The notes below the pieces were generated by a model that did no database searches, had not been told where the DNA came from, and was given only the letters and a program-made list of their open reading frames with translations. A stretch of 64,000 nucleotides of DNA from Thermoplasmatota archaeon (GTDB lineage Archaea; Thermoplasmatota; Penumbrarchaeia; Penumbrarchaeales; Penumbrarchaeaceae): contig JALOTP010000001.1 in the NCBI GenBank assembly GCA_025457865.1, forward strand, positions 96,457 through 160,456. Direction: 5' to 3'. Shown here piece by piece: positions 14,791 through 64,000 of the stretch; the stretch's first letter is position 1, and each line of letters opens with the position of its first letter. The position numbers and the translations under genes are program-made.

Positions 14791-14793
14791 GGA

Positions 14794-22887: not shown

Positions 22888-23463
22888 TCACATGGTCCCC
22901 TTCCTTTTTCTGTCGAGCAGTCCCTTCAATCTAAGGAAGGTCTCCCTGTCCAATTCCCCCTTCATGAACCTCTCAGCAAGCTCGATGAGCATCTCATCGA
23001 TGAGGTCCTCGTTCGAGACGTACTCATAGACCGTTCCAGAACCCTTCTCCACTTCCATGACCGCCCTGTGCTCCTTGAGTGAGCGGACGATCCGGTACAA
23101 TCGGGACTTAGATATGTCTGTCCGCTGGAGGAGCTGGTCCGGAGTTAAGCCAGGTTCGCTCCTTATCATTTCGAGGACCTTTCTCTGCTCGGGTAGGATC
23201 CCTTCCCAACCTACGGTTCTGGACGGGTCATGGGACGATGAGTAATAGGTCCTCATCCTACCGGTCTTCCTGGAGAAGACCTCACGCTTTTTCTCAAGGA
23301 ATCGCAGATGGTATTCCAGTGTACCCTTGTTCAGACCCAGGGACCTCTGTAGTGAGCTGAAGGAGATGCCTGGGAGCGAACGGATCCTCTCAAGCAGCAC
23401 TTGCCTGGTCCTGTGGATGTCCGCTTCCTCGGTAACGGCCATGGGATCGACCAGCCCCATCAC
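22888..23463 (-). CDS. Winged-helix transcriptional regulator (two wHTH-like halves)
   Basis: The SFSSLQRSLGLNKGTLEYHLRFLEKK and LTPDQLLQRTDISKSRLYRIVRSLKE helices give an ArsR/MarR-like fold. Confidence 0.55.
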   Translation of the reverse strand: MMGLVDPMAVTEEADIHRTRQVLLERIRSLPGISFSSLQRSLGLNKGTLEYHLRFLEKKREVFSRKTGRMRTYYSSSHDPSRTVGWEGILPEQRKVLEMIRSEPGLTPDQLLQRTDISKSRLYRIVRSLKEHRAVMEVEKGSGTVYEYVSNEDLIDEMLIELAERFMKGELDRETFLRLKGLLDRKRKGTM

Positions 23464-34573: not shown

Positions 34574-36655
34574 TCAACTTCCGGGCGGACCCTGCACGAA
34601 CATCTCTTTGCAGCTCGGACATGCAGAAGTGCCCTCGGCCACTTCGGACCCGCACTTCGAGCAGGTAAGTACCTCTTCGAAGATGGCCCCGCAGCCCTGG
34701 CACCTCATATCTCCCGGGGCCATACCGGTCCCGCACTCGGGGCAGGGCTCGGACCCTTCATCATCCTTATCCAGATCATCCTCATCATCTTCCGCTTCGT
34801 CCTCCTCATCTATGTCGTCCGCGGGAGGCTCCGCTCCATCCGAGCTCCCTTCACAGGACTGGCTGGATGCATCTTTGGCATCGGGGGCTGCCGATATTGG
34901 CGAAGTTCCCTGCTCCGCCTCCTCCTTGGAGCGCTCTTTCCTTGTCAAGAGCATGACGATGAGAGCGATAACTGCGAGGATGACGACCGCGATGATGATG
35001 ACCTCCCAGGGGAACCCCTCATCCTCCTCTTCTACCCTTATCTCAACGGTATCTGTGGATTCGAGGTCCCCGTCGGTCGCGTGGAGTGTGTAGGTGTACT
35101 TTCCGGAGGGGAGGTCGAAGACCTTGACAGAGGCCCCGTTTGCCCTCCATGAAGAGGCTTTGCTCCTTGTCCACCAGACTGTGACCTTGTCACCGTCGGG
35201 GTCGGTCGCGCTGGCCGACAGCGTGAACGCACCGCCCTCCTTGACCTTTTCCTGGTCGGATGCGGCCTTCGTTATGACAGGGGCCCTGTTGGCGTTCGAT
35301 GTGATGTTCTGGACGACCGTCCTTGTATTGCCCGCAGGGTCCTTGATGGTGACCGTTACGGTATGGCGGCCGGGAGCAAGGGACGGTATGGTAACGGTGC
35401 CGCCATGTGCGGTCCATTCGGGGTCGGTCGATATGGTCCATGTGAAGTTCAGTTCCTTTCCTTCGGGGTCCGATGCCTGGACGGTGAGCGTCACAGGCCG
35501 CCTCTCCCTCACTGTCAGGTCCTTGATTGCCCCAATGATGACGGGGCGCTTGTCATGTATTCGGGGGAGCGGGTCCTCGACATTGGGTATCTGGTCCCCG
35601 TCCATGTCGGGATCGAGCTCGTTCAATATGCCGTCGGAGTCCATGTCAAGGTCCAGCACCGTCGAGATGGATGACGGTCGCGCCTCATTGTAGTTCTCCG
35701 CCATCCTTTCAATGGTAGGCGCAGTGCCGGTGATGTCAGGGAAGCTGAGAATGGACATATCGAATGAGAACGTGCCTTCGAGACCGTCCTTCATTGCCCT
35801 GACCAGCGGTCTGACCACCGTTGTACCGGTCGGTGCCTCGAGAAGTGCAACGGAGTCCCCCTGCACCGTTCTGAACCGAAAGCCCCTGTCGGAAACGGAG
35901 AACTGCCCGGACCTGGTCTCGGGAGCGAAAAGGTGGTTAGACCCGTACATGACCTCGAGCTCGCAGTCGGGGGCTTCCTTCAGGACCATCAGAAGGAACC
36001 TGGTCCCGTTGCCTGCGACGGCATAGGGGTACGGGTACGGATCGATGAGCGTCCTGGGGGAACCGGGCTGTTCCGTTAAGAGGTCGGCGACCTCCAGCGT
36101 TATGGCCTCCTCTCCCATCCTTATCCCCGGGGAGGCCGGGGCATTGAAAAGGACCGAGATCTCAACGGTTTCGCTCTCGTTATCGACCATGTCCAGGGCA
36201 TCGTCAATGTTGCCGGCGACGTCGTACTGGGAGCTGCCTCCCGAGACCCTGCCGGGAAGGTCGTCCCTGGCGGCATATCGGATGGCGTCCCGGGCCGTTA
36301 TGGTCCAGTCCCATTCGTGTGGGATGGCGGGTTCGAACCAGGTGTGGCTGCCCGAGATCATGCTCGAACCCGGAACGGTGATGAACACTGTGTCAATATC
36401 GTTATCGGCATCATGGTTCTCGACCTTGAACGTCAGCTCTGCGCGTCTCCCGGCACCAAGTATGATGAGGCCCTCCGGGAGCGAAGGGTCGGACATGACG
36501 CCCTGGGTCCCTGATATGTCCGACATGACGTCCCCTCTCGAGATGGTGCTGCCGAAACCGCCATGGGACCTGTCAAGGAGCATGATGGCCCCCAACGAAC
36601 CAATGAGAACGACGAGCGCTATACTGACAGCTATCTTTTCGCTTGGAAGACCCAT
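34574..36655 (-). CDS. Surface protein with Ig-like/PKD-like domains, single TM anchor, acidic cytoplasmic linker and C-terminal zinc ribbon
   Basis: Signal/TM at the N-terminus and PKD-like beta domains (FTWTIS..., VTVWWTRS...). A TM helix (VIIIAVVILAVIALIVMLL) is followed by a D/E-rich stretch and CPECG...CQGCG...CSKCG...CPSC. Confidence 0.65.
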   Translation of the reverse strand: MGLPSEKIAVSIALVVLIGSLGAIMLLDRSHGGFGSTISRGDVMSDISGTQGVMSDPSLPEGLIILGAGRRAELTFKVENHDADNDIDTVFITVPGSSMISGSHTWFEPAIPHEWDWTITARDAIRYAARDDLPGRVSGGSSQYDVAGNIDDALDMVDNESETVEISVLFNAPASPGIRMGEEAITLEVADLLTEQPGSPRTLIDPYPYPYAVAGNGTRFLLMVLKEAPDCELEVMYGSNHLFAPETRSGQFSVSDRGFRFRTVQGDSVALLEAPTGTTVVRPLVRAMKDGLEGTFSFDMSILSFPDITGTAPTIERMAENYNEARPSSISTVLDLDMDSDGILNELDPDMDGDQIPNVEDPLPRIHDKRPVIIGAIKDLTVRERRPVTLTVQASDPEGKELNFTWTISTDPEWTAHGGTVTIPSLAPGRHTVTVTIKDPAGNTRTVVQNITSNANRAPVITKAASDQEKVKEGGAFTLSASATDPDGDKVTVWWTRSKASSWRANGASVKVFDLPSGKYTYTLHATDGDLESTDTVEIRVEEEDEGFPWEVIIIAVVILAVIALIVMLLTRKERSKEEAEQGTSPISAAPDAKDASSQSCEGSSDGAEPPADDIDEEDEAEDDEDDLDKDDEGSEPCPECGTGMAPGDMRCQGCGAIFEEVLTCSKCGSEVAEGTSACPSCKEMFVQGPPGS

Positions 36656-45657: not shown

Positions 45658-48600
45658 ATGTTCAAGAGAGATCTACTGGTGGCAATAGCTATTCTTACTT
45701 TTTTGAGCGTACCATCTGTAACGTGTTACCCCCATTCATCTGGACCTGTAGGAACCCCTTGGACCATGGACGGTGACCTGGAGATGGACATGAACATCTC
45801 GGAAGCGTCTATGGCATCGTTCATTGGCGAAGGCGCTTGGGATTCTTCGGGTTTTTCCGTGTCAAGGGCAGGGGATGTGAACGGCGATGGGTTGGATGAT
45901 ATCATCATAGGTGCCCAACAGAATGGGGAGGGTGGCTCTGGTGCGGGTCAGACATACCTCTTCTTCGGAAGGGCGAGCGGTTGGGAGATGGATACGAACC
46001 TCAGCATGGCCGATGCCTCGTTCATTGGGGAGGATGATGGTGATGGTTCCGGCCATTGTGTGGTGGATGCCGGTGATGTGAACGATGATGGTTATGATGA
46101 TATCCTCATAGGTGCGAACCAGGATGAGGACGGCGGGAACGGGGCAGGTCAGACATACCTCGTTCTCGGTAGGGCGTCAGGATGGACAATGGACACCGAC
46201 CTGAGCTTGGCCGATGCCTCGTTCATAGGGGAGGATGATGGTGACAATTCCGGTCATACGGTGGATGGGGCGGGGGATGTGAACGGTGACGGGTTCGATG
46301 ACATACTCATAGGGGCCTATGGGGACGAAGATGGAGGCGGTGGAAACGCAGGTCAGACCTATTTGATATTGGGTAAAGCCTCGGGCTGGGCCATGGATAC
46401 TGACCTCAGCCAGTCCGATGCATCGTTCTGGGGTGAGGAAGGTGGGGATTGGTCGGCCTATTCGGTTGCGGGCGCCGGAGACGTGAACGGGGATGGTCTC
46501 GATGACATCCTTGCCGGAGCCTCCGACAATGATGCAGGAGGGAATGCCGCTGGCCAAGCCTATCTGATACTGGGAAAGGCCTCAGGTTGGGCGATGGATA
46601 CAGACCTATCAGCTTCCAGTGCATCCTTCTGGGGCGAGGAAAGCGTTGACTATTCAGGTATCACGGTATCAGGACCGGGAGATGTGAACGGTGATGGCTA
46701 TGACGATATCTTCATCGGGGGTTCGAACAATGATGAGGGGGGGGACAATTTCGGCCAATATTATCTGGTCCTGGGGAAGGCCTCTGGGTGGGCGATGGAC
46801 ACCGACCTGAGCCTCTCGGACGCTTCGTTCCGAGGAGAGTACAGTGGGAGTTGGACGGGGAGGCAGGTTTCCGGGGCAGGAGATGTGAACGGTGATGGGT
46901 TCTATGATATAATGGTAGCGGATTCCTATGCAAATGAGGGTAATTCCGGAGCAGGTCAGACCTATCTGATATATGGGAAGGCCTCAGGATGGTCGATGGA
47001 TCAAGACCTGAACGAGTCCGACGTCTCCTTCATAGGGGAGGACAACGGGGACCAATCTGGGTATTCCGCTCATGGTGCCGGAGACGTCAATGGGGATGGC
47101 AACGACGACATCCTTGTCGGGGCTCCCGGAGATGAGGAAGGCGGCCCGCAATCAGGTCAGACCTACCTAATCTCCATCGAAGGTTTCTCCGAACCATTGG
47201 CGGTCTATGACGTCACGGTCAGGAATGGAATGGGGGAATTGGTCCAGGCCGCCGATATAGGAGAATCAGTCATCATAGAGATTAAAGGTCTGGACAGGAA
47301 CGAATCACATATGGACAAGGCTAGGGTCAACGTTTCCTTCAGCTCCGGAAAACCCGCACAGATCACCGTTGGCCTGATAGAGACCGGTCTGGACACAGGA
47401 CTGTACCGCGGCATCTACAGGGTGAATGTGAACGCTGAATATTTCCAGAGTATCCATTTTTCGGCATATATAGCCCCATCTGAATACTACAATGTGAAGG
47501 TGGATTATCCCTATAGGCCCGATAATGTGGTATCACTGGGTGTCTATTCGAGCCTGACCAGTTCGACCTTGTTAGATAAGTTGGACCTGGGCCAGACAGT
47601 CTATATCAAATGCTCTGGAGAGGATTCGAACAAGTTGACCATAGATAAAGCGTTCGTTAACCTGACCTCGGACAAGAACACGACCTACCATTCCATGGTC
47701 GTCATGATGGAAACGGGGGCATCCACAGGAGTGTTCACCTCATCGTTCACCGTCCCTAGTACGATGGGTTATTTCGAGAACATAACAATGTCATCGGCAG
47801 AGACACCCTCTGTCACTGCGATGTTCATGGTCCATACGCCTGTCCAGCTAAGAGCTACAGGTCCGTTCCGAAAAGCCCAGGAAGATTTGGAGTACAGGGT
47901 GGGTTTCTACAATTTCGGTTATAGTACGGTGACCTGGACCCTGACCACTGATGCATATTGGCTGGAATGGGACGAGGTGGGACATGTGCTCGATGGAACA
48001 CCGAGGAACATCGACGTTGGGGCTGACATCTGGAAGGTCATGGTCCGAATATCGGACGATCAAAGCCGCAGTCATGAGCTGTTGTACAACATCACTGTGA
48101 AGAATACGGACCCGTCGATACTCACAGAGCCTATGACCGAATGCATAGAGTACGATCCGTACCACCTTGACCTGGATTCCAGCGATGATGAGGGCGGTGA
48201 GACCACCTGGTATCTCAACACTGATGCAGAGTTCCTGAGCATTGAGAAGGATACAGGTATCTTGAAAGGAAACCCGATAGGTGTGGATATCGGGGAATAT
48301 CTAGTCAATGTCCAGGTAAGGGACGGGAAAGGAGGGACCGGTAATCTGATCTATGACCTGACGGTGGTCGGGAGGAACGATGGACCCCAGATCACAACCA
48401 CCGACATCAAGCAGGTCGAACAGGACACACCCTTCCGAAGGGATTACGAGGTCTTCGACCCTGATGAGGGGGATTCCCATCACTGGACGCTTAGGACCGA
48501 TGCGGATTGGTTGAGCATGGAGAACGATACTGGAGTTTTGTTCGGGACACCAAATGGTTATGACGTTGGAGACTGCTTCATTAATATCACTGTCACTGAC

Positions 48601-49929
48601 GAGGGAGGGTTGAGCGACTATCGTCAGCTAACGTTCAAGGTCATCGATCTAAAGGATAGACCTGTGTTCGATTCATTGCCCGAGGATGTCGAACTGCTGC
48701 ATGGGAGACGATACAACTTCGATATGAACGCATCCGATCCGGATAAGGATACTATATTGGTATACTCTATCTCAACCGAACCCATCAGCGATATGGCAAT
48801 AGACTCAAGGACCGGAGAGGTCAATTGGATCGCATCCTTCAGGTCCATGCCAGTAACCGGGGATGGAATGGTGGTTCGGGTGAAGGTGTCCGATGGTGAA
48901 CTGTTCTCGGTCCATGAGTTCATGGTCAATGTCATACCGACAAGATCCCCCATCGCTCAGCTCTTATCCCCCGTCATAGGGACAAGGACCCTATCAGGAT
49001 ATTCATTGCTCGAATGGTCGGGGTCCGATCCCGAGAACGAACCTTTGACCTATACGCTCTACTTGGCGGACAGCAATGCCTACCTATCAGCCAGGAGGGT
49101 TGAGGATATCAAGGCTGAAAGGATCCAAGATGACCATATCAACCTGACCGGACTGATCCAGGGCAAGACCTATTACTGGTCGGTAGTCCCGGACGACGGA
49201 TGCACTCAGGGGACCTGCTCAAACGGTATCTTCAACTTCAGGGTCAACAGCAGGCCCGCTCTGATAGATGTGAAGGACCAGACTATTGAGGTCGATATGA
49301 TGTTCAGGTCCAAGCTATCAGGTAGTGATGACGACCAGGATGATGCCGTAAGGTACGAACTTGTCGATGGACCGTCCGGATTGACCGTAAAGGCCGAGAC
49401 CGGGATGATCGAATGGACCCCGGGGTCAGATCAGGTCGGGACCCATACGGTCACTATACGAGCGACAGATGGGTATGAGTGGACGAAGATAGACTTCGAA
49501 ATTAAAGTTGTGGAGAAATCTGGACCGAACCTTGGATTGATATTGGGCGCGTTAATAGTAATTCTGATAATTGTCATCATAGCTCTGGTCCTTTTCATCG
49601 TTGTTTTCAGGAAGCGACCCTCTGAGGAGGAAGTGGTGGTCGAGGAGGAAGATGAGGAATCGAAGAGGATACGCGAAGAATTGGTGCAGCTTCGTAGCGA
49701 GAAGGATTGGGAGTCGGCCCATTCAAAGCCGTCCGATCAGGTTGTGGCTTCGGTGCCCTCCTCTGTTACAGAGGCCCATGCCAATGATAGGACATTGAGG
49801 AAGATGAGCTATGAGGACCTCTATGGACAGCCCGCACCTGACAAGAGCGAGGAACTTACTACAGAGGAGCTGAAGGGAGAGCTCAAGAAGCTGACCGAAG
49901 AGCTGAAGGGCTCAATGGTCGAGGAATGA
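45658..49929 (+). CDS. Giant surface protein: signal peptide, ~8 FG-GAP repeats, Ig/cadherin-like domains, TM anchor and conserved coiled-coil cytoplasmic tail (paralogue 1)
   Basis: 1423 aa. Repeated GAGDVNGDG(F/Y/L)DDI(L/I)IGA modules, a TM helix LGLILGALIVILIIVIIALVLFIVVF, and a tail containing SVPSSVTEAHANDRTLRKMSYEDLYGQPAPDKSEELTTEELKGELKKL. Confidence 0.8.
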   Translation: MFKRDLLVAIAILTFLSVPSVTCYPHSSGPVGTPWTMDGDLEMDMNISEASMASFIGEGAWDSSGFSVSRAGDVNGDGLDDIIIGAQQNGEGGSGAGQTYLFFGRASGWEMDTNLSMADASFIGEDDGDGSGHCVVDAGDVNDDGYDDILIGANQDEDGGNGAGQTYLVLGRASGWTMDTDLSLADASFIGEDDGDNSGHTVDGAGDVNGDGFDDILIGAYGDEDGGGGNAGQTYLILGKASGWAMDTDLSQSDASFWGEEGGDWSAYSVAGAGDVNGDGLDDILAGASDNDAGGNAAGQAYLILGKASGWAMDTDLSASSASFWGEESVDYSGITVSGPGDVNGDGYDDIFIGGSNNDEGGDNFGQYYLVLGKASGWAMDTDLSLSDASFRGEYSGSWTGRQVSGAGDVNGDGFYDIMVADSYANEGNSGAGQTYLIYGKASGWSMDQDLNESDVSFIGEDNGDQSGYSAHGAGDVNGDGNDDILVGAPGDEEGGPQSGQTYLISIEGFSEPLAVYDVTVRNGMGELVQAADIGESVIIEIKGLDRNESHMDKARVNVSFSSGKPAQITVGLIETGLDTGLYRGIYRVNVNAEYFQSIHFSAYIAPSEYYNVKVDYPYRPDNVVSLGVYSSLTSSTLLDKLDLGQTVYIKCSGEDSNKLTIDKAFVNLTSDKNTTYHSMVVMMETGASTGVFTSSFTVPSTMGYFENITMSSAETPSVTAMFMVHTPVQLRATGPFRKAQEDLEYRVGFYNFGYSTVTWTLTTDAYWLEWDEVGHVLDGTPRNIDVGADIWKVMVRISDDQSRSHELLYNITVKNTDPSILTEPMTECIEYDPYHLDLDSSDDEGGETTWYLNTDAEFLSIEKDTGILKGNPIGVDIGEYLVNVQVRDGKGGTGNLIYDLTVVGRNDGPQITTTDIKQVEQDTPFRRDYEVFDPDEGDSHHWTLRTDADWLSMENDTGVLFGTPNGYDVGDCFINITVTDEGGLSDYRQLTFKVIDLKDRPVFDSLPEDVELLHGRRYNFDMNASDPDKDTILVYSISTEPISDMAIDSRTGEVNWIASFRSMPVTGDGMVVRVKVSDGELFSVHEFMVNVIPTRSPIAQLLSPVIGTRTLSGYSLLEWSGSDPENEPLTYTLYLADSNAYLSARRVEDIKAERIQDDHINLTGLIQGKTYYWSVVPDDGCTQGTCSNGIFNFRVNSRPALIDVKDQTIEVDMMFRSKLSGSDDDQDDAVRYELVDGPSGLTVKAETGMIEWTPGSDQVGTHTVTIRATDGYEWTKIDFEIKVVEKSGPNLGLILGALIVILIIVIIALVLFIVVFRKRPSEEEVVVEEEDEESKRIREELVQLRSEKDWESAHSKPSDQVVASVPSSVTEAHANDRTLRKMSYEDLYGQPAPDKSEELTTEELKGELKKLTEELKGSMVEE
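45850..47170 (+). repeat. Internal tandem FG-GAP coding repeats (~200-nt period) within giant gene 1
   Basis: Recurrent nucleotide blocks encoding GKASGWAMDTDLS...ASF.GE...GDVNGDG (e.g. near 46375, 46575, 46780). Confidence 0.55.
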
Positions 49930-50066: not shown

Positions 50067-53000
50067 ATGAGTTCGAAAGTGAACATGGTGCTAGTTGCCA
50101 GCGTGGTCCTTTTAATGGCCCTTTTCCCCACCGTCATCTCGGACGGCAGCGGACCAGGACCAGTTCCGGGCCCCAGGGGTGACCTTTCCAAGAACATGGA
50201 CCTCAAAGACGCTGCTTTCGCATCTTTCCTTGGAGAGAGGCCCAACAGCAGGTCCGGGACCTCGGTCGCAGGATTGGGTGATGTTAACGGTGACGGTATC
50301 GATGATATCATCATAGGCGCCAGTGACGACAATGAGTGGGGTATGCTATCTGGACAGGCTTACCTTTTCCTGGGAGGCCCTTTCGGATTGAAGAGAGGGT
50401 TGAGCCTATCAGAGGCAGATGCGTCCTTCTACGGCAATCAAGATGGATTGGCCGGGTTTTCGGTTGCCGGGGCAGGGGATGTCAACAATGACGGCTTGAA
50501 CGATATCCTAATCGGTTCTTACAACGACCCGGACGGAGCGTTGCAGGCAGGGAAGGCGTATCTCATCTTCGGTAAGAGGACAGGCTGGGAGATGGACACA
50601 TCCCTATCCAGCGCCAGTGCGAGCTTCATGGGGACCATGCCCCACATGCAGTGCGGTTTCTCCGTTGCGGGGGCAGGGGACGTAAATAAGGACGGGTTCG
50701 ATGATATCCTCATCGGAAGCAAGCTTGGCCGCGTCTATCTCTTCTTCGGAAAAGCGTCCGGTTGGACACAGAACAGGCAGCTCCCCACAGCCGATGTCAG
50801 TTTCACCGAGGAAGGACCTGTAGAAGGGATAGGGGATTCAGTGGCCGGAGCGGGCGATGTCAATGGGGATGGTTATGAAGATATTTTGCTGGGTGCCCCC
50901 CTTAACGATGAGAACGCTCCCGATTCAGGTCAGACCTATCTCATCCTTGGCAGGTCCGGACCATGGCTCCCGGACGTCCTGCTGACCAATGCCGACGCAT
51001 CGTTCCTGGGCGAGAGCGAGAACGACCGCTCCGGCATCAGCATCGCCGGGGGAGGCGACGTGGACGGCGACGGTTATGACGATATCGTCATAGGTGCCGA
51101 CGGCCACAGCCAGGTCGCGATGCATGGAGGGAAGTCCTACATCATATTCGGAAGGTCTAGCGGATGGTCCATGGACACAAGGCTCTCCGGTCCCGTTGTG
51201 TCGTTCATGGGAGATGACGAAGGGGACCAGATAGGGAACCCCCTCTCATCTGCCGGGGACCTCAACATGGACGGCCTGGACGATATATTGATATCCTCTC
51301 CCTTCAACGGGGAGAACGGGGTCCAATCCGGAAAGGTCCATCTTATCTTCGGTCGGAGGACCGGTTGGGGCGTAAACGTATCTATCTCAAAGGCCAATGC
51401 ATCGTTCATGGGGGAGACCGGAGGGGACAATGCGGGCTCATCCTTAGCGGCCGCTGGGGATGTCGATGGGGACGGATTGAACGAGATCGTACTGGGGGCC
51501 AAGCACCGTTCCGAGGGGGAGAACCTCGCCGGAAAGACATACCTTGTCAAGGGACCTGCGGGGACCGAACCATTGTCGGTCCAATCCATAAGCGTGTTCT
51601 CCGGAGGCTTCGGACTTAAAGCGGGCAGGTTCGACAAGGGTGACAGGGCATTCATAGAGATGAAGGGGGTCGATGGGAACCTGACGCATACTGACCATGT
51701 CAGGGTCATAGTGGGCTTCAGCAGGACCTATGCGGGGACCATCGATATCTTTCTCAAGGAGACGGGACCGAACACAGGTGTTTACAGGGGCTCCTTCCAT
51801 GTCCCGACAACGACCGAATATTTCGAGACCATAACGTTCTATGCGGCCAAGGACCCGTTGAAATATGCCAGGATAGTGGTGGACTATCCGTACAGACCCT
51901 CCAGCGTCACTGCGATAGGGGTCTACTCGAGCCCGACAGGTCTAACACCCCTTGACAAGCTCGACTACGGCCAGACGGTCTATTTCAGAAGCGTCGGGGT
52001 CGATTCGAACACGTCTCGGGTCGATAAGGCGTTCGTGAACATGAGTTCCGACAAGAACGCAAGCTACCTACCAATGCTGGTCCTGACCGAGACCGGTGCA
52101 TCGACAGGGACCTTCGTGGTGCAGTTCAAGGTCCCATCGACCATGCAGTGGTTCGAGAACATCACCCTCACCTCGGTCGAGACGGCGGCGAAGAAAGCGA
52201 AGTTCATGGTCCATACCCCCGTCCAGGTCAGGGCCGCTGGACCTTACAAGGACGCAGTGGAGGATTCTGAGTACAGGGTGTCATTCTATAACTTCGGATA
52301 CAATCCGGTCATATGGACCGCTACTAAGAACGCTTACTGGCTCAACTGGAACGATAAGAAGCTGGAGCTCTACGGTACCCCCCGCAACAACGACGTGGGG
52401 GACAGCGATTGGGAGGTCCTTGTGACCATAGAGGACGAGTTCGAGCACAGGAGCAGTCTCGAGTACGTCCTAAGGGTCATCAATACCCCACCCGAGATAC
52501 TCACACCACCGGTGACCGAATGGTACGAGAACAGGCCATATCTGGTGGATTTCAACTGCGATGACGACGGTCAGGGTTCCATGACCTGGACCTTGAGCAC
52601 CATTGCACCGTTCCTCAAGATCGACAAGACCTCCGGTGTCCTGAGCGGCACCCCTATTGTGGGGGATTCCGGGTCCTATGTTGTGACGGTACAGGTCCAC
52701 GACGGTCATGGCGGCATCGATGAGGTCCGTTACAACCTGACCATAGAGGATGAGAACGACCCGCCCCAGATAACGACCACGGACATCAAACAGGTGGAGC
52801 AGGACACCCCTTTCAGACGGGACTACGATGTCTATGACCCTGACCAGAACGACATCCATAACTGGACGCTAAGGACCGATGCGGAATGGTTGGGGATCGA
52901 GAACGGTACAGGCGTACTTTTCGGTACACCCGACGGGTACGACGTCGGCGACTGGATTGTGAACATCACCGTAACCGACCAGGGAGGTTTGAGCGACAGT

Positions 53001-54353
53001 CAGGAGTTCACGCTGAAGGTCCTGGATATAGAGGACGCACCGAAGTTCATAGATGTACCGAGGAACAAGGAGCTCCCCCACGGGACAGAACTCTACTTCG
53101 ATGTGAACGCAACCGACTATGACAAAGACGACAAGGTGGCCTACAGCGTCATGACCGAGCCTTCGAGCAATATGCTGATAGACCCAACGACCGGCGATCT
53201 GAGATGGACCGCGAGCTATCGCTCGATGCCGCAGAACGAGGTGGGTATGAAGGTCACATTGAGAGCTACCGACGGGCAGCTCACCACTTCTTACGAATTC
53301 TTCGTGAAGGTGACCCCGACGCTCTCCCCATACAGCCAGCTCGTGTCACCGGCCAAAGGGGCCAGGACAGCTCAGGATAAGACCATACTGCATTGGGGGG
53401 GGACCGACCCTGAGGACGACCCGCTGATCTACATACTCTACCTTGCGGACACGGAGGCCTATATAACATCGAAGAGCCCCGATAGTATGGTCTCATCCAC
53501 CATCACGGGAACGACCTATGAGTTAACAAGGCTCACGCCTGGCAAGACCTATTACTGGACCGTCATACCTGACGATACTTGCACCTACGGTACCTGTACG
53601 AACGGTGTGTTCAGCTTCAGGGTGAACAACAGGCCTGTCCTTGAGACCGTCAAGGACCAGTTCACTGCTGAAGGGGATGAGTTCCTCTACAAGCTGATGG
53701 GCAGCGATGGCGACCAGGACGACAAGTTGGTCTATGCCCTGGAGAAGGGTCCGTCGGGTATGACCCTGAGGGATTCCACGGGTATGCTCGTCTGGACACC
53801 AAAGAGCGGACAGGCCGGTACCCATACGGTGAAGGTCAATGTCACCGACGGATATGAGATAATGATGGTCCAGTTCAGGATCGTGGTTTCGGAGAAGGAA
53901 GGACCCAACATTGGCCTTCTGATAGGTATCGCGCTTGGGGTCATAGTTCTCATCATCGCCGCACTCCTCCTCTTTTTCCTCGTGATCAAAAAGAAGGGAG
54001 AGGAGGAAGGAGGGGAGGTCAAGGAGGAAGAGGACGAGGAGACCAAGCAGCTGAGGGAGGAGCTCGAGCAGAAGGAGAGAGAGACGGGGTGGACGGAAGG
54101 GGGAGCGAAGCCTCCCGGAGAACAGCGGACCATCACCTCTGTCCCATCATCCATCGCCGAGGCACATGCCCAGGACAAGACATTGAAGAAGATGGGCTAC
54201 GAGGAGCTCTACGGACAGCCTGCACCCGATAAGGACGAGGAGCTGACCACGGAGGAACTGAAGGACGAGCTCGAGAAGCTCGCAGAGCAGCTCCGGAACG
54301 CAGGGACCGAGGACGCATCCATAGACCTCGGTGAGGAAGAGAACGGGACTTGA
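50067..54353 (+). CDS. Giant surface protein paralogue 2 (FG-GAP repeats, Ig/cadherin-like domains, TM anchor, conserved cytoplasmic tail)
   Basis: 1428 aa, collinear with paralogue 1. Long near-identical blocks (NDPPQITTTDIKQVEQDTPFRRDYDVYDPD..., GKTYYWTVIPDDTCTYGTCTNGVFSFRVNNRP) and a matching tail (SVPSSIAEAHAQDKTLKKMGYEELYGQPAPDKDEELTTEELKDELEKL). Confidence 0.8.
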   Translation: MSSKVNMVLVASVVLLMALFPTVISDGSGPGPVPGPRGDLSKNMDLKDAAFASFLGERPNSRSGTSVAGLGDVNGDGIDDIIIGASDDNEWGMLSGQAYLFLGGPFGLKRGLSLSEADASFYGNQDGLAGFSVAGAGDVNNDGLNDILIGSYNDPDGALQAGKAYLIFGKRTGWEMDTSLSSASASFMGTMPHMQCGFSVAGAGDVNKDGFDDILIGSKLGRVYLFFGKASGWTQNRQLPTADVSFTEEGPVEGIGDSVAGAGDVNGDGYEDILLGAPLNDENAPDSGQTYLILGRSGPWLPDVLLTNADASFLGESENDRSGISIAGGGDVDGDGYDDIVIGADGHSQVAMHGGKSYIIFGRSSGWSMDTRLSGPVVSFMGDDEGDQIGNPLSSAGDLNMDGLDDILISSPFNGENGVQSGKVHLIFGRRTGWGVNVSISKANASFMGETGGDNAGSSLAAAGDVDGDGLNEIVLGAKHRSEGENLAGKTYLVKGPAGTEPLSVQSISVFSGGFGLKAGRFDKGDRAFIEMKGVDGNLTHTDHVRVIVGFSRTYAGTIDIFLKETGPNTGVYRGSFHVPTTTEYFETITFYAAKDPLKYARIVVDYPYRPSSVTAIGVYSSPTGLTPLDKLDYGQTVYFRSVGVDSNTSRVDKAFVNMSSDKNASYLPMLVLTETGASTGTFVVQFKVPSTMQWFENITLTSVETAAKKAKFMVHTPVQVRAAGPYKDAVEDSEYRVSFYNFGYNPVIWTATKNAYWLNWNDKKLELYGTPRNNDVGDSDWEVLVTIEDEFEHRSSLEYVLRVINTPPEILTPPVTEWYENRPYLVDFNCDDDGQGSMTWTLSTIAPFLKIDKTSGVLSGTPIVGDSGSYVVTVQVHDGHGGIDEVRYNLTIEDENDPPQITTTDIKQVEQDTPFRRDYDVYDPDQNDIHNWTLRTDAEWLGIENGTGVLFGTPDGYDVGDWIVNITVTDQGGLSDSQEFTLKVLDIEDAPKFIDVPRNKELPHGTELYFDVNATDYDKDDKVAYSVMTEPSSNMLIDPTTGDLRWTASYRSMPQNEVGMKVTLRATDGQLTTSYEFFVKVTPTLSPYSQLVSPAKGARTAQDKTILHWGGTDPEDDPLIYILYLADTEAYITSKSPDSMVSSTITGTTYELTRLTPGKTYYWTVIPDDTCTYGTCTNGVFSFRVNNRPVLETVKDQFTAEGDEFLYKLMGSDGDQDDKLVYALEKGPSGMTLRDSTGMLVWTPKSGQAGTHTVKVNVTDGYEIMMVQFRIVVSEKEGPNIGLLIGIALGVIVLIIAALLLFFLVIKKKGEEEGGEVKEEEDEETKQLREELEQKERETGWTEGGAKPPGEQRTITSVPSSIAEAHAQDKTLKKMGYEELYGQPAPDKDEELTTEELKDELEKLAEQLRNAGTEDASIDLGEEENGT

Positions 54354-58362: not shown

Positions 58363-59043
58363 TCAGATATGGCCTTTTGAGGTCCTTATGAAACCATTAA
58401 TGACCTTGGTCCCGAAAGCAAGGACGCTCTCTGGAGCGTTATCATAGGCCTCTGGATGGAACTGGACCGCATGGACGTGTCTGGTCCTGTGCTTTGCATA
58501 TTGAACGTAGGAGGATCCCCCATCCCTGCTAACAGAACGGACCGAGAAGTCCCGTATGAGTACAGGGTCGTCCGGAGGGACGTAGTCCCTGTGGCTAACA
58601 TTGACTGGATGCTCACCGTTCCCCATGATCCCGCCCTCATCCCCATCCACATGGACCGTGATATCCCTCCCGTTCGGGAGCAGGAACTCGGTGGAATCCG
58701 GGTTCCGCATCACTTTGCAGCCAAAGGCATAGAGGACCAGATGGAAGCCGAAGCAGATCCCGAGGATAGGAAGGGGCGAGTCCCTGACCAGGTCGATCTC
58801 CATCCCTACCTTCCCCCGGTCCATAGGGTCCGAGATGTTCATGCCGGAACCGGAAAGGACCATCCGGTCGAATCCTTTCTCGATCGTCCTTATCCCGGGA
58901 AGGTCCTCGTAGCGTATGGTCACCACTTTGACCGGATATGAACGGAGGGTGTCCTCAAGCCTCTTTATCCGATGGTTCTTCTTCCCCTCCTCCTTGACTG
59001 TATTGTCGATGAGGAGGACTTTTGGTCTGGACCGTTCTATCAT
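58363..59043 (-). CDS. Class I glutamine amidotransferase-like protein
   Basis: The GICFGFHL nucleophile elbow and the HVHAVQFHPE His/Glu motif. 226 aa. Confidence 0.75.
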   Translation of the reverse strand: MIERSRPKVLLIDNTVKEEGKKNHRIKRLEDTLRSYPVKVVTIRYEDLPGIRTIEKGFDRMVLSGSGMNISDPMDRGKVGMEIDLVRDSPLPILGICFGFHLVLYAFGCKVMRNPDSTEFLLPNGRDITVHVDGDEGGIMGNGEHPVNVSHRDYVPPDDPVLIRDFSVRSVSRDGGSSYVQYAKHRTRHVHAVQFHPEAYDNAPESVLAFGTKVINGFIRTSKGHI

Positions 59044-59273
59044 CCGTGATCATCCAGTAACTTAGAGATAGAACAGGAGAAGGCTCTTCAATCTTTCCTA
59101 TGCATAACGTTCGGTCCATCACTCTGGCCCACAACGGATAATAATTAATCGAATGAAGGTCATTCCCTATATCGTGGGGGAACTAGTTCTGGAGCGGCCC
59201 ATCCTTGGCCCCTCTCCATGTAGGTTCCTGGTTTAGGGCATGATATGCCCTTCTATGACGTGAGGTGGTCAGT

Positions 59274-62200
59274 ATGGGTCGAACAAAGATAGTACTGATT
59301 TCGGTGATCTGTTTTGTACTTGTGGTGGGACCGATCTTAGACCCGGTCATCACTGGCTGGGTCAAGGGGCTGGGAGATGGCATGGACCTGGACACCAGGG
59401 CAGCCGTAATACCAGGGCCTTACAGGAACCTCAAGAAACTGGTGGACGATCTCCTTGCCGTTACAACGGATTGGACGGATTCGGATGAGGATGGCCTACC
59501 CGATGCGGTGGAAAGGATAATCGGGACCGAGTACGAAAATGCCGATAGCGACTACGACACATTGAACGATTCATATGAGGTGTCGCTGAACATCGACCCG
59601 TTGAAGGCCGACTCCAACGATGACGGATTGGTGGACCCTCGCGAGGTCTTGGATGTCCCATTGGACGTCGATGGAGATGGCGCACCCAACGGATGGGATC
59701 GGGACAATGACAATGACGGCTTCGAAGATGGTACGGACAAGTCACCCAGTGCCTGTACCGATCTTATAGATACCTTCCATCTGGACCTGAACACTACGGG
59801 AAAGCCCCTTTACATTTCCATGCAGCTCAGGCCCAAGAACCCGGAAAAGATGAAATTGATGCTCGGGACACTGGATTGGCCTTACGATGATAAGGGAGTG
59901 ATGAAGGACCTGGACAATTCGACCGGGGACGTCCTGGTATCGCCGATATTGAAATTGAAGGGGAATGTTTTACCAGCCCAGGATGAAGTGGTCGAATACG
60001 GCATGAAGGTCGGGGAAGATGGGGTAAAAGCACCGCTTTCCGCCGAGTGGGAATACGGACGCGTCGTTGGCTTAGGCGCCAAGATATTCTACCCGGGATC
60101 GGCAGAACCCATGAATCTGAGCCTGGATATGAGCATAGAATGGGTGGTGACGGGTATCACCGATACCGAGGTAAGGACGATCAAGGCCAATGATCAGAAA
60201 TACCTGACATCGATGGGCTCAGGATCGGTGAAGGCCAACTCCACCGAGAGGACCGAGCCCCAGCGGTTCGGTTGGGAGAGGATCGGCGAAGACAAGGTAT
60301 CTCTCAGGACAGCTGGCGGATATTATATCGGGGTGGACATGGACGGAAAGGTAAGATCCGGATTCGAAACGCGCGATGATCAATGTATATTCACGATAAA
60401 AAAAGAGACCGGCTACCAATATCTCACCGATGAAAACGGAAATTACTTAGTCCTGCTGGATGACGGCTCGATCGGAACGACAAAGGACAGGTCGGAAAAG
60501 GCAAGATTCGTCATTGAGAATGATGGTGTGCGGAAGAACAGCATCACACTCATGACCTATACGGATGAGTTCGTGATAGCGAGTCTAACGATTTCGGAGA
60601 ATTACGGGACCGATATCGGCCTGGTCTATTCCGAGGACGCGGAGGAGATGATCGCAGCGAACATGGTCCTTACAAGCAGTTACATGAGGAACTATTCTCT
60701 CAAATTGGATGAGATTCCCGAATTCCTCCAGGCGAGGAACATCACGATCCGCAATTCAACAGGAAGTTACCAGCATTCCGACCTGGCCGTCAAGGCTGCC
60801 CTGGGAACGATGGTTATTGAGGCTTTCGAGACCCTACCTGAGGGAGAGTTGTGTTCCATCACCACCTTAATGGAGGACAGTGCATCCATCGCCGACCTGA
60901 CGGGTATATCTTCCTTGAACGGCAGCTCTTTTTCTGTGGATATGTCGGATGTTCCAATTATCACGACAAGGCTCATGAAATCGACATGGTACGAACCCCC
61001 GTCGAAGGAACCGTTGGGACCCAGTGAATTCCTTTTACGGATCGATCCTTTGCTGGACCCGCTCAAGGATGAGGACAAGAAGTCGATGATCGGTATGGTC
61101 CTGTTCTGGAACGTGGGCGAGATACGGGTCATGAAGATAGGTGATGATGTAAAGGGTAACGGGACCGATGAATGGATGGAGGAAGCCTCGAGATGGAGCG
61201 GGGCAATAGTAGGAAGCATAAGTTTCGTCATCAATTTCGTGAAGGATTTCGTATTGCCGGTCCTTGAGTTCCTTACGTTCATGTATAAGCAATTCACGAC
61301 GAGCAGCCAGTTCCTGATCGCGATCATAAAAGGCACTGGCGCATCTGTACTGTACATCCTTAAATCCTTCAAGGACTGGGGCGCCTGGGGTTCGTCTGTC
61401 GCTAAGGTCCTTTTCGGGGTGGGGATCGTGATAAGCATCATCGGTTACGTCATAGATGTGGCGCTCCTCATATTCAATCTTGTGGCAATGTACGGCGCTG
61501 CTGCTTGCGACCCGTTCCAGATCACATTGACCACGATCTATGCTGTCATGGCTTTTTCATGGATAACAGCCCTGTTCGGAGTAGGCCTCTTCTTCTCGAT
61601 CCTAACCTTCATACTGAGCCTTCAAGCGATACCGGTAGGTGGCCAGATCGCAGGTTTCATAATCGGAGTGGTAGTGGCCATCGTCGGTTTGCTCTATGCG
61701 CTCGAGGAGCTGGTAGTCTCACTAATAACAGGTAAGAGCGGATCCGAATGGGTTATATCCTGGATCATAGGACTGATCTCAGGTGTGTGGGTGCTTACGA
61801 GCGTGGACATGGACCTGTTCAGTTCGGAGATATCGATAGATGATGTGACGGGTAACGGTCTCGATTCAAATGACAGGATCGAATTCAAGAACATCTGGGA
61901 CACTACTGTTACAAGGGATGATAAAGGAACGGCTGACCAGCTCAAGAACTCGTATATCCGACCCGATTACAGGATCTCGGTCCCCATGAACACTTCGGCC
62001 GGTCGGGTGTACTTCGAAACCGGCAATTACTCCAAAGTGATATCAAGCCAGGTCACGGACAATGAGAAGAAAGTACGATACGAATCGGGTGCATGGATCA
62101 AACCCGGCACCGGGATGGTGAACTATCCTGTGGTCGTTGACCTATTGATGAGCTACTCAAGGTACTATCAGGAATACCTTTTCTGGGGACTCATCCCGTT

Positions 62201-64000
62201 CGATCCCAAGACCGATTCCTCTGTTTCGGTCCTGGACACCTCGACCCATTATTTCGATATCTTGCCAGCCACAATCGATGAGTTCAACACCTGGAGATAT
62301 CTGATACATGCTGATGCGGACGGTGACGGGATCAACAATACGGATGAGGTCGGAACGGACCCGATGAGATGGGACACCGACGGGGATGGGCTCGGGGACA
62401 AGTACGAGCTGGACATCGGTTATGTGCCAAATGCCTCGGATTCGGATGGAGACGGATTGGTGGACAAGAGGGAGTTGTTCGCACGGATCGATCCGATGGA
62501 TGAGGATTCGGATGACGACGGTCTGACGGACATGGAAGAGCTCGAGGGATGGGTGATCAATTTCAGCTATTGTGGGAAGGATTTCGAGTGGCACATCATA
62601 TCGAACCCGGGGTACTCTGACACCGATGGGGACGGGCTCAACGATACCATGGAGTACCTCTGCCTCCTGAATCCAATGTCATACGATACGAACGGCGACG
62701 GGATGGACGACGAGCTGCAGGATTATACGACGACAGAGATCGAGCACGTCGAGACGATCGGCGATGATGACGGATACGCTCTCAAATCCTGCTATGGAGT
62801 AACTGTCCTGGAGGATGGAGGCTTGATCATGATCGGCACCAAGGATTTTAAAGATGATACCCTTGTGAAGATCGGTCCAGAAGGTGCGATCGTTTGGAAT
62901 TATACCGATCCGTATTCGCCCTTCGACGGGTTCGTGGATGTGGATTGCGGACCGGACGGGCGGATCTATGCATCCAATTATTATAACTATGACCCAACGG
63001 ATTCGATCGGGGTATGGGTCCTGAATCCCAATGGGACATATAATTCGACATTGCTGTTCCCGGACTTTGTTGTGGGTGTGCCAAATGCATTTTGGGTAAA
63101 AAGTCTGGCATTGGATGACGAAGGAAATCTCTATACATTGAGCACGTCCGATAGGGGCTTTGAACACATAGGATATCCAATTCAAGCCGGAGTGCATCTC
63201 GTCAAATTCTATCCGAACGGAACGGTCGCGGACATGTATTCGTTCCCTTCAGGGTCCACTAATCCTTTCCCGGGAGGGATCGAGTCCTTCCCGGACGGGA
63301 ACTGGCGCGGCACTCTGGACATCGACAGCAAAGGCAACATGTTCATCACGGATCCTTCCAGGGACCGGGTCCTGATCTTCGACCGTGAATATAATTTGCA
63401 GTTGGTCTGGGATATGACCCAGTTCGGTGAAGTGAAGGATCTCCAGATCGATGATGATGATAATGTCTACATCTGCGGATACGATGGTAGCCACGACCTG
63501 ATGCAGAAGTTCGATAGATACCGCAGGGTGATCGCGGAATGGTCCACTGATCTTTACGAGAACTCGGTGTGCCCCGATGGATCGGGTTTCGTCTATGTCG
63601 GCGGAGATGCGGCGACCGAACCTTACAGGGGTAGGATAATGAGGTTCTGGGAGAACGTCACTTTCCATCGGGTCTCGGAGAATTTCACTTACACTGATAC
63701 CGATGGGGAGGGGTTGACCGATGTTTTGGAGGAAACGGGGTGGAACGTGACCGTATCGTTGAAACATGCCTCCATTTCGTACCATATCAATTCGAGCATT
63801 AATTTAGTAGATACGGACATGGACGGATTGGATGACCTGGAAGAGTTCGAACTGGGATCGGATCCAAGGAATATAGATTCCGATATGGACTCTGTCCCGG
63901 ACCCGACAGAAGCACAGACCGGGACAAATCTGACATCATGGGACACGGATGGGGACGGACTAGGGGACGGACAGGAGGAGACGTTCAATAGCGATCCGTT
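59274..64000 (+). CDS. Very large protein (at least 1575 aa, 3' end outside the window): TSP3-like Ca-binding repeats, multi-TM core, NHL-like beta-propeller repeats
   Basis: I translated this myself because it has no stop before the window end. N-terminal TM, then DSDEDGLPD / DSNDDGLVD / DVDGDGAPNGWD repeats. About five TM helices fall in aa ~640-800, then DADGDGINNTDE / DTDGDGLGDKYE / DSDGDGLVDKRE repeats, then NHL-like blades (DDEGNLYTL, DSKGNMFITD). GC is ~48%. Confidence 0.7.
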   Translation, partial: MGRTKIVLISVICFVLVVGPILDPVITGWVKGLGDGMDLDTRAAVIPGPYRNLKKLVDDLLAVTTDWTDSDEDGLPDAVERIIGTEYENADSDYDTLNDSYEVSLNIDPLKADSNDDGLVDPREVLDVPLDVDGDGAPNGWDRDNDNDGFEDGTDKSPSACTDLIDTFHLDLNTTGKPLYISMQLRPKNPEKMKLMLGTLDWPYDDKGVMKDLDNSTGDVLVSPILKLKGNVLPAQDEVVEYGMKVGEDGVKAPLSAEWEYGRVVGLGAKIFYPGSAEPMNLSLDMSIEWVVTGITDTEVRTIKANDQKYLTSMGSGSVKANSTERTEPQRFGWERIGEDKVSLRTAGGYYIGVDMDGKVRSGFETRDDQCIFTIKKETGYQYLTDENGNYLVLLDDGSIGTTKDRSEKARFVIENDGVRKNSITLMTYTDEFVIASLTISENYGTDIGLVYSEDAEEMIAANMVLTSSYMRNYSLKLDEIPEFLQARNITIRNSTGSYQHSDLAVKAALGTMVIEAFETLPEGELCSITTLMEDSASIADLTGISSLNGSSFSVDMSDVPIITTRLMKSTWYEPPSKEPLGPSEFLLRIDPLLDPLKDEDKKSMIGMVLFWNVGEIRVMKIGDDVKGNGTDEWMEEASRWSGAIVGSISFVINFVKDFVLPVLEFLTFMYKQFTTSSQFLIAIIKGTGASVLYILKSFKDWGAWGSSVAKVLFGVGIVISIIGYVIDVALLIFNLVAMYGAAACDPFQITLTTIYAVMAFSWITALFGVGLFFSILTFILSLQAIPVGGQIAGFIIGVVVAIVGLLYALEELVVSLITGKSGSEWVISWIIGLISGVWVLTSVDMDLFSSEISIDDVTGNGLDSNDRIEFKNIWDTTVTRDDKGTADQLKNSYIRPDYRISVPMNTSAGRVYFETGNYSKVISSQVTDNEKKVRYESGAWIKPGTGMVNYPVVVDLLMSYSRYYQEYLFWGLIPFDPKTDSSVSVLDTSTHYFDILPATIDEFNTWRYLIHADADGDGINNTDEVGTDPMRWDTDGDGLGDKYELDIGYVPNASDSDGDGLVDKRELFARIDPMDEDSDDDGLTDMEELEGWVINFSYCGKDFEWHIISNPGYSDTDGDGLNDTMEYLCLLNPMSYDTNGDGMDDELQDYTTTEIEHVETIGDDDGYALKSCYGVTVLEDGGLIMIGTKDFKDDTLVKIGPEGAIVWNYTDPYSPFDGFVDVDCGPDGRIYASNYYNYDPTDSIGVWVLNPNGTYNSTLLFPDFVVGVPNAFWVKSLALDDEGNLYTLSTSDRGFEHIGYPIQAGVHLVKFYPNGTVADMYSFPSGSTNPFPGGIESFPDGNWRGTLDIDSKGNMFITDPSRDRVLIFDREYNLQLVWDMTQFGEVKDLQIDDDDNVYICGYDGSHDLMQKFDRYRRVIAEWSTDLYENSVCPDGSGFVYVGGDAATEPYRGRIMRFWENVTFHRVSENFTYTDTDGEGLTDVLEETGWNVTVSLKHASISYHINSSINLVDTDMDGLDDLEEFELGSDPRNIDSDMDSVPDPTEAQTGTNLTSWDTDGDGLGDGQEETFNSDP

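Follow-up and report, generated by a model that had tools for sequence, protein, structure and literature searches.

A giant, probably surface-exposed archaeal protein with a conserved central hydrophobic module belongs to a large unnamed family

The stretch of DNA analyzed here, hereafter the window, comprises 64,000 nucleotides of contig JALOTP010000001.1 from a Thermoplasmatota archaeon (GenBank assembly GCA_025457865.1, positions 96,457 to 160,456 of the forward strand), and it ends within a giant gene. The gene starts at ATG 59274, 6 nt downstream of a Shine-Dalgarno-like GAGGTG (59262..59267, +) read from the sequence, and its reading frame (frame 1) stays open through the window end, which corresponds to 1,575 codons, as an earlier sequence-only reading of the window had pointed out. 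The remainder was obtained from a 49-kb metagenome contig of the Joint Genome Institute (JGI), reached by way of the adjoining glutamine amidotransferase gene (58363-59043, minus strand), which matches the window with 0 mismatches in all 15,638 bases that the two have in common. The start codon chosen in the JGI gene call is the same, and on this contig the gene runs for 592 further codons beyond the window end, giving a protein of 2,167 amino acids (aa). Exactly this protein is deposited as NCBI MCU0798171.1 ('hypothetical protein MUC62_00670 [Candidatus Thermoplasmatota archaeon]'), on a 178-kb contig of a metagenome-assembled genome (MAG).

Sequence searches place the protein in a large family that is mainly archaeal and has not yet been named. 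A HMMER scan with its residues 160-1010 against 1.84 billion representatives (clusters at 50% identity) returned 265 matches with E<=1e-3, of which 99 had E<=1e-30; most are 2,000-2,500 aa long and align to residues ~160 to ~1000 of the protein studied here. The full-length alignment of 22 sequences, which are 31-57% identical to it, is collinear over ~2,100 aa. Among the best 100 hits, 61 were at least 1,900 aa long, and the statistics on the ends of homologues refer to these: a hydrophobic segment was present at the N-terminus in 46/61 and at the C-terminus in 34/61, the median number of thrombospondin type-3 (TSP3) motifs was 21, and four hits ended in PGF-CTERM-like signals. A locus search with a 4-sequence alignment in one genome per GTDB species found 13 loci, all in archaeal MAGs (Thermoplasmatota including EX4484-6, Methanosarcinales, Methanobacteriota, Thorarchaeota and Promethearchaeota), and these carry full-length or near full-length family genes; two distant carriers of the central module come from bacterial MAGs, one from Firmicutes and one unclassified. 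Divergent paralogues occur within one genome (QCI82_05350 and QCI82_10660), MG1_202111_bin_239 and an EX4484-6 MAG have two family copies each, and two paralogues lie in tandem on one Methanobacteriota contig (L009:2295-8153 and 9494-14886). Members are annotated as 'hypothetical protein' or 'RICIN domain-containing protein', no curated model covers the helical module, and literature searches found no description of this architecture, in agreement with the initial impression that the gene does not represent a described family. The giant modular surface protein is a known kind of prokaryotic protein; what is new is the fixed architecture together with the central module.

Since the 22-sequence alignment is collinear throughout, comparison with homologues identifies the open reading frame (ORF) as one real long gene, neither a fusion nor a frameshift artefact. 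The opposite explanation, in which an assembly error or a frameshift fused an N-terminal protein ending in transmembrane (TM) helices with a second one starting in TM helices, has in its favor only that an internal TM cluster is unusual a priori and that the sequence comes from a MAG. However, the independent JGI assembly gives the same sequence with 0 mismatches over 15.6 kb, and dozens of homologues of ~2,000-2,500 aa, from various phyla and samples, have the same order of parts without interruption. These collinear homologues, judged by their sequences, already refute the artefact, and we consider its probability negligible. Consistent with that, neither the identical JGI contig nor the collinear homologues from different archaeal phyla revealed a frameshift or a stop codon that would split the ORF into ordinary smaller genes.

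From the N-terminus, the protein consists of a signal or anchor segment, five TSP3 repeats, a beta-sandwich with an inserted beta-trefoil, an alpha/beta domain and the helical core (aa 641-850); the core is followed by a beta domain, six TSP3 repeats, a six-bladed NHL propeller, eleven TSP3 repeats, C-terminal domains without family assignment, and a TM anchor with a basic tail. The N-terminal hydrophobic segment (aa 4-30; 59283..59363, +; Kyte-Doolittle 2.54) probably serves either as a signal peptide for the Sec pathway or as a signal anchor. An A-x-A cleavage site (QPAVA or similar) is present in most homologues but missing in this protein and its nearest relatives. The domain searches and the segment-wise structure prediction that had been suggested for this gene identified TSP3_bac, Fascin and NHL, and gave confident models of the N-terminal ectodomain and of the beta domain behind the core; the core was matched by no model, and its helices were predicted with lower confidence. 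Among the 22 aligned members, Pfam matched TSP3_bac in 22, Fascin in 16, FRG1 in 15, RicinB in 3, NHL in 13, PKD in 9 and CarboxypepD_reg in 5, whereas no Pfam or NCBIfam model covers the domains termed A, B and C below, the core, or the C-terminal 400 residues of the protein.

The presence of TSP3-type Ca2+-binding repeats in at least three places, noticed already from the sequence, was borne out by a regular-expression motif search, which found 22 motifs of the form D-x-D-x-D-G-x-x-D-x-x-E in 22-residue repeats forming three arrays of 5, 6 and 11. Array 1 spans aa 69-155 (59478..59738, +), array 2, found also by alignment and Pfam, spans aa 1014-1149 (62313..62720, +), and array 3 spans aa 1475-1722, its start and four of its motifs lying in the window (63696..64000, +). 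The Asp and Glu positions of the motif are invariant in the 22-sequence alignment. Pfam TSP3_bac (PF18884) matched all 22 members (best 1e-39), while the protein alone reached 20.3 bits, under the cutoff of 25. By sequence, the repeats thus belong to the TSP3 type.

For aa 160-645, an AlphaFold2 (AF2) model based on 23 sequences reached a predicted local distance difference test score (pLDDT) of 85.6 and shows a long-strand beta-sandwich, the inserted trefoil and an alpha/beta domain. The sandwich (domain A, aa 166-300; 59769..60173, +) has the invariant residues W202, D205, D212, S216, D219, W290 and D297 in the 22-sequence alignment. Domain A alone (aa ~162-300, with W202, D205, D212, S216 and D219 invariant) was also found in other giants, of 3,000-5,400 aa (P0082, P0090, P0114-P0116, P0124 and P0138), and one carrier is a 'VCBS repeat-containing protein' of an Anaerolineae MAG; its occurrence there marks it as a mobile, unnamed module. 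The alpha/beta domain (domain B, aa 420-640; 60531..61193, +; pLDDT ~90) ends in the conserved W612..GE616 and has no Pfam match. A Foldseek search with the model of the N-terminal ectodomain matched the trefoil as its sole part and left domains A and B without family assignment; a match to Cry35Ab1 was rejected as poor overall (template modelling score 0.29, root-mean-square deviation 24 A).

The trefoil inserted in the N-terminal ectodomain (aa 305-418; 60186..60527, +) is of the fascin/ricin type. It matched Pfam Fascin with 27.9 bits (cutoff 23.1), the family profile matched fascin at 1e-21, and its model (pLDDT ~90) superimposed on Symfoil and CBM92 with template modelling scores of 0.81-0.85 and a deviation of ~2.0 A. 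The predicted structure thus identifies it as a beta-trefoil, likely a glycan- or ligand-binding module. Some members have RicinB at this site instead according to Pfam. In P0018, FG-GAP repeats ('DWGGDDRFSGVAAGDVDGDGKDEIITY...', residues ~400-640) take the place of the trefoil at the same insertion point, and this exchange of trefoil, RicinB and FG-GAP suggests that the site behaves as a swappable ligand-binding insert.

Behind the core lies the juxtamembrane beta domain C (aa 836-1010; 61779..62303, +; AF2 pLDDT 84-95), whose conserved motifs are D857-x-D-x-NGLD-x-GDRI, SYIxP, WVEPG..M.N.P and TLYFDV.P..I..F..W. The NHL-type propeller follows array 2 (aa ~1155-1470; 62736..63683, +). Blades of this kind had been proposed from the sequence; they are weak in the protein alone (SBBP 23.2 bits; the designed Pizza propeller and PknD 2e-5) but strong by family profile, which matched Pizza7H at 5e-35, Thin at 1e-32, TRIM71 at 3e-30 and PknD at 5e-23 over ~250 profile positions, and the propellers of Thin, TRIM71 and Brat at 1e-22 to 1e-32. 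Pfam NHL matched 13/22 members (best 2e-28), and profile comparison thus assigns the domain to the six-bladed NHL propellers.

No Pfam match was found in the C-terminal 592 aa. The protein ends with a TM segment and an RRRK basic tail ('...NVGLFLIIIAVLFLLLIVAIALLLRRRKDQIEE'). The PGF motif is absent from this C-terminus, which is thus not that of a PGF-CTERM/archaeosortase A substrate, while PGF/PGY-like ends occur in four homologues (P0017, P0028, P0037 and P0038). We also observed that in this protein (L001:3267-3300, minus) and in 10/61 long homologues the basic stop-transfer tail is followed by a terminal '-EE', as in RRRKDQIEE, RRRRMDIEE and ...SDFEE, which may be a cytoplasmic recognition motif. 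A TPR gene located downstream on the metagenome contig was considered as a partner of this motif and dropped, as it is not conserved in other loci.

The central module lies between these arms. The sequence-only reading had described about five TM helices here; the hydrophobic cluster is real (aa 643-848, Kyte-Doolittle peaks up to 2.73), but it comprises six hydrophobic or amphipathic segments in this protein, of which three (H3, H4 and H5) are conserved and H1 is marginal. The span figures derive solely from hydropathy scales (Kyte-Doolittle and a Hessa-type scale). H1 (aa 641-667; 61194..61274, +; Kyte-Doolittle 1.69), a candidate first span, has a Hessa-type sum of +6.6 (family median +8.1), is TM-like in 3/35 homologues, and has an AF2 pLDDT <50. 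It is followed by a loop rich in K/R and poor in D/E together with the amphipathic helix H2 (aa 668-711; 61275..61406, +; Hessa-type sum +5.0). In the family alignment the loop has 1.6-2.6 K+R against 0.3-0.8 D+E per 15 columns, and the 45-60 residues preceding H3 contain 3-15 K+R against 1-6 D+E per homologue, which makes this the sole basic stretch of a very acidic protein. By its charge the loop would be cytoplasmic.

H3 (aa 708-743), H4 (747-783) and H5 (789-819) are conserved hydrophobic helices (61395..61730, +), with Kyte-Doolittle values of 2.35, 2.18 and 2.73, Hessa-type sums of +0.3, -1.8 and -2.4, and TM-like character in 32/35, 31/35 and 26/33 homologues, respectively. A GWS-type loop follows H3 and recurs after H5, and an invariant Pro/Gly (P..G) turn separates H4 from H5. 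The last segment, H6 (aa 823-850; 61740..61823, +), is hydrophobic only in this protein (Hessa-type sum +0.7 against a family median of +11.5), and AF2 models it as a 13-residue helix entering the strands of domain C; for both H2 and H6, hydrophobicity is not conserved across the family. Residues inside the helices are poorly conserved, a few Gly and one acidic residue in the middle of H3 being kept, and the conserved flanks of the core are W612..GE616 ahead and the domain C motifs behind. The AF2 model of aa 600-1012, built with 19 sequences, shows three long helices with loops of 3-5 residues (pLDDT 66-80) and then a short helix; it has no confidence ahead of aa 706, and the beta domain that follows has a pLDDT of 84-95. 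Taken together, a hydrophobic helical module does lie between repeat-rich regions, as initially described, and both of its flanks carry extracellular marks. The core and its juxtamembrane flanks also occur deeper inside other giants (P0069, P0096, P0100 and P0140).

By inspection of the sequence and of the alignment, the core contains neither His nor Arg, nor any polar residue whose conservation would point to catalysis. As the core is devoid of His and Arg, enzymatic membrane cores (rhomboid, CPBP and archaeosortase) were dropped as candidates. Pfam and NCBIfam searches with the core alone, with 19 core segments and with the family consensus returned nothing meaningful, and Foldseek matches of the core plus domain C to alpha-hemolysin/leukocidin and to generic beta-sandwiches were discarded (template modelling scores 0.1-0.3, deviation >11 A).

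The extracellular marks of both arms are of several kinds. N-X-S/T sequons are enriched in the N-terminal arm (10 against 3.8 ± 1.7 expected) and in the C-terminal arm (24 against 10.0 ± 2.7), with 0 in the core. Dx[DN]xDG motifs are strongly biased towards secreted and surface proteins (PMC3123361), and thrombospondin-type genes of Marine Group II Thermoplasmatota were interpreted as adhesion genes (PMC6461757). Because of the sequon enrichment, the Sec signal peptides of most homologues, the TSP3 motifs and the C-terminal TM segment with RRRK (PGF-CTERM in some homologues), both arms can be placed outside the cell, which requires that the chain cross the membrane an even number of times within the core. 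The basic loop, by the positive-inside rule, and an up-down-up run of the core helices, which the AF2 secondary structure suggests and which would put the basic loop and domain C at opposite ends, favor four spans (H1, H3, H4 and H5), which is the most likely topology of the module. Judged by hydropathy, two to four spans would be conserved in the family and up to six could be present in this protein; alternatively, H4 and H5 would be the only spans, forming a hairpin, and H1-H3 would lie along the outer face of the membrane.

The reading that we favor, and consider reasonably probable, is that members of the family are multiply anchored, Ca2+-stiffened cell-surface glycoproteins that act as adhesins or envelope proteins. 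The chain would be exported by its N-terminal signal and fixed in the cytoplasmic membrane at the central helical module (aa 641-850), and again at the C-terminal TM anchor with its basic cytoplasmic tail. H1, as a marginal stop-transfer helix, would run from outside to inside, leaving the basic loop of 45-60 aa in the cytoplasm; H3 would return to the outside and be followed by the GWS loop, H4 would run inwards up to the P..G turn, and H5 outwards. The N-terminal arm (aa 31-640), with five TSP3 repeats, the beta-sandwich, the inserted trefoil and the alpha/beta domain, would lie outside, as would the C-terminal arm (aa 850-2125), tethered at both ends and containing the beta domain, 17 TSP3 repeats in two arrays, the six-bladed propeller and beta-rich domains. 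The TSP3 arrays would serve as Ca2+-stiffened spacers, the trefoil and the propeller as ligand-binding heads, and the central module as a non-enzymatic anchor. The most likely function, by analogy of the domain types and considering paralogy and neighbours, would be Ca2+-dependent adhesion or envelope/glycocalyx scaffolding.

Several points weigh against this proposal. Adhesion is suggested only by domain types; H1, which is needed as the fourth span, is marginal (+6.6, TM-like in 3/35, pLDDT <50); and if just the three clearly hydrophobic helices crossed the membrane, the spans would be odd in number. Were the core a plain anchor, it would be hard to see why this part and its flanks are conserved collinearly and define the family, or why a terminally anchored protein would need a central anchor. 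Nor does an anchor account for the similarity, weak but specific, between the core and the pyocin S5 pore-forming domain. We weighed the anchor against the possibility that the core is distantly related, or analogous in function, to the pore-forming domain of colicins and pyocins, with only the H4-H5 hairpin spanning the membrane, H1-H3 on its outer surface, and a pore or on-demand insertion, either in the cell's own membrane or in that of a target cell to which the lectin and propeller arms have bound. The colicin/pyocin pore-forming domain consists of basic amphipathic helices around a hydrophobic helical hairpin; its fold is a compact ten-helix globule with the hairpin buried, and it sits at the C-terminus. 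When the core profile was compared with all PDB sequences, the pyocin S5 pore-forming domain was the sole match below E=0.01 (E 1.1e-4), aligning co-linearly over ~110 residues that include the basic helices, G(D)W and the hydrophobic hairpin with a Pro/Gly turn. A hidden Markov model (HMM) of 35 core sequences scored 32.6 bits against it (E 8e-7 at PDB size), a value reached by 0/200 full and 0/1,600 local shuffles (maximum 28.6 bits with 5-residue windows, otherwise <=15.3 bits). With hhalign, five colicin-type domains aligned in the same register (probability 27-44%, P 2.4e-4 to 6.9e-4, score 29-31); a score of 29.2 compares with 21.3 for the best of 150 column-shuffled decoys and 15.7 for the reversed alignment. 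Such a relationship would account for the odd three helices, for the acidic residue in the middle of H3 and for the basic amphipathic segment. However, colicins Ia, Ib, E1 and A reached 4-7 bits with the core HMM, which is the level of shuffles, and Pfam Colicin (PF01024) matched neither 19 members (E<=1) nor the family consensus (E<=10), although the pyocin S5 segment, included in the consensus search, gave 270 bits. Pairwise phmmer comparison of pyocin S5 with family proteins stayed at noise level, AF2 predicted long TM-like helices and not a compact ten-helix globule, no colicin was among the top 50 Foldseek PDB matches listed for the core model, and the module lies mid-protein, unlike the C-terminal domain of colicins. 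Nor did any conserved small membrane 'immunity' ORF adjoin the family genes: the small adjoining ORFs are not conserved between loci, and their translations, read by eye with no hydropathy calculation, had no clear hydrophobic segments. A toxin-immunity pairing was dropped for lack of such an ORF. On balance, we consider this possibility unlikely, though well worth keeping in sight. We also think it rather improbable that the core is, specifically, an archaeal relative of the colicin/pyocin domain acting as a membrane-insertion or pore unit inside a giant Ca2+-stiffened surface protein; if it were, the family would be a contact-dependent pore-forming or membrane-gating device and not a passive adhesin, and the domain would be the first of the colicin type known outside bacteriocins and the first in archaea.

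The conservation of the core and its juxtamembrane flanks as a family-defining unit, which recurs in other giants, would also fit an explanation in which the core is the working part of a channel, a transporter or a mechanosensor, gated by ligand- or force-sensing ectodomains in the manner of polycystin-1 or adhesion receptors. In addition, the Gly-rich helices, the repeated GWS and the invariant Pro/Gly turn suggest tight packing or oligomerization. Yet the TM residues are poorly conserved, the mid-H3 acidic residue is the only trace of a conserved charged or polar pore-lining pattern, and His and Arg are lacking. With ~50 residues and a 9-residue tail, the cytoplasmic part would leave little room for signaling, and no match to a transporter or channel family was obtained. 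We therefore regard a gated core of this kind as distinctly improbable, and retain the multiply anchored surface glycoprotein as the favored reading.

The gene follows a divergent amidotransferase gene, a TetR/ABC/FtsX cluster and two genes for FG-GAP/He_PIG proteins of ~1,425 aa (45658-49929 and 50067-54353, +), 4.9 kb upstream of the giant gene. In 4/5 other Thermoplasmatota loci, the family gene has a gene for a FG-GAP giant of ~870-1,420 aa as its immediate neighbour (L002:14178-18368, L003:8446-12282, L004:7262-11530 and L006:15112-17721), the one in L004 being 41% identical to the window copy. These neighbours have integrin-alpha-like propellers, usually with He_PIG/Ig domains, in place of which L002 has PA14, and they may be functional partners of the family protein. 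The loci of Methanosarcinales and Methanobacteriota have in common a downstream gene of 240-270 aa (L008:10211-11020 and L009:8175-8894), 40% identical between loci and without Pfam assignment.

The giant gene had been described as having a GC content of 48% against 60% around it, which overstated the contrast. The GC content is 51.4% in the part of the gene within the window, 54.4% in the whole window and 55-62% in housekeeping genes. At third codon positions (GC3), it is indeed lower in the giant gene (64-65%) than in housekeeping genes (72-80%), but the contrast is modest and common to surface-protein genes nearby, GC3 being lowered likewise in the adjacent FG-GAP and beta-helix surface genes. 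With a GC3 that is reduced only moderately, to a level like that of other surface-protein genes in the window, a foreign origin of the gene was dropped.

The window is unusually rich in envelope proteins. Besides those mentioned, we noted a beta-helix/NosD surface-type protein (23460-25688, -; GC3 56%), a PKD protein with a C-terminal double zinc ribbon (34574-36655, -) and a FG-GAP plus PKD protein (37911-40898, +). An AddAB-like overlapping pair (28245-31343 and 31289-34567, +) encodes a PD-(D/E)XK nuclease and then a UvrD helicase with a PD-(D/E)XK domain, and has ~61% GC, the highest in the window. Four co-directional ORFs of 394, 193, 270 and 166 aa (9104-12190, +), flanked by the genes for ABCE1/RLI (7102-8952, minus) and aconitase X (12732-13952, minus), may form an island acquired in the recent past, judging by composition: GC is 34-37% and GC3 28-37% in the two ORFs measured, in a genome with 72-80% GC3 in its genes, and the stretch 8001-12000 averages 39% GC. 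The first of the four has an N-terminal VapB-type antitoxin domain (PF02697, 3.7e-10), and the other three have no Pfam match. Scans of the window for transfer RNA genes and with Rfam were empty.

To our knowledge, almost nothing has been established about the envelope and adhesion biology of uncultured archaea such as Thermoplasmatota, Methanosarcinales and Asgard. The finding defines a widespread, strictly collinear family of ~2,100-aa proteins. It comprises at least 265 clusters (50% identity), has several paralogues in a genome and, usually, integrin-alpha-like FG-GAP giants as neighbours; what sets it apart is the membrane module, so far without annotation, that separates the two extracellular arms. 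If the family were named, together with its three new domains (A, B, and the core with beta domain C), hundreds of giants now listed as 'hypothetical' or 'RICIN domain-containing' would become a class open to testing.

Comparison with known systems places the family among giant surface proteins and sets it apart from each kind. Like teneurins, teneurin-like and Rhs proteins, it combines giant size and surface exposure with a six-bladed NHL propeller; Pfam TEN_NHL matched 5/22 members, and the family profile matched teneurin-like proteins of the PDB at ~2e-12. The likeness to teneurins and Rhs proteins that had been suggested from the sequence ends there, as the propeller is the sole common part. 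Giants of the teneurin/Rhs type are marked by a YD/Rhs shell, a C-terminal toxin domain and a type II single-pass topology, none of which was found in this family: there were no RHS or YD repeats among the Pfam matches of 22 members (E<=0.01) or in the protein itself, Pfam found no C-terminal toxin or nuclease domain in the 22 members, and the C-terminus of the protein is a TM anchor. With the colicin/pyocin domain, the core shares the order of basic amphipathic helices, G-(D/N)-W, a hydrophobic hairpin with a Pro/Gly turn and, last, acidic residues, and the family profile scored 24-33 bits against pyocin S5; in contrast to colicins, it has three strongly hydrophobic helices in place of two, an archaeal host and a mid-protein position. 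The FG-GAP/He_PIG giants, integrin-alpha-like and co-located with the family in Thermoplasmatota loci, are also surface proteins with Ca2+-binding propellers, but they are unrelated to the family in sequence outside the swapped insert of P0018, and Pfam found no comparable internal membrane module in them. Archaeal S-layer proteins and other surface glycoproteins anchored by a C-terminal TM segment or PGF-CTERM likewise combine an acidic composition and many sequons with a Sec signal and a TM segment plus basic tail at the C-terminus; S-layer proteins have no internal helical membrane module, the protein described here has no PGF motif, and a single lattice protein would not be expected to have several divergent paralogues in a genome. 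Finally, the TSP3 surface proteins (Myxococcus CglD and MtsD, NF033765, NF047639, and the 'thrombospondin' genes of Marine Group II) differ from the family in that those of the CglD/MtsD type are lipoproteins or secreted, without a central hydrophobic module and without a fixed domain order over 2,100 aa, and the NCBIfam CglD and MtsD models matched only partially, in the repeat arrays and far under their cutoffs (for CglD, 47 bits where the cutoff is 400). They resemble it in being exported and acidic and in carrying TSP3 arrays, and they are read as adhesion proteins (PMC6461757).

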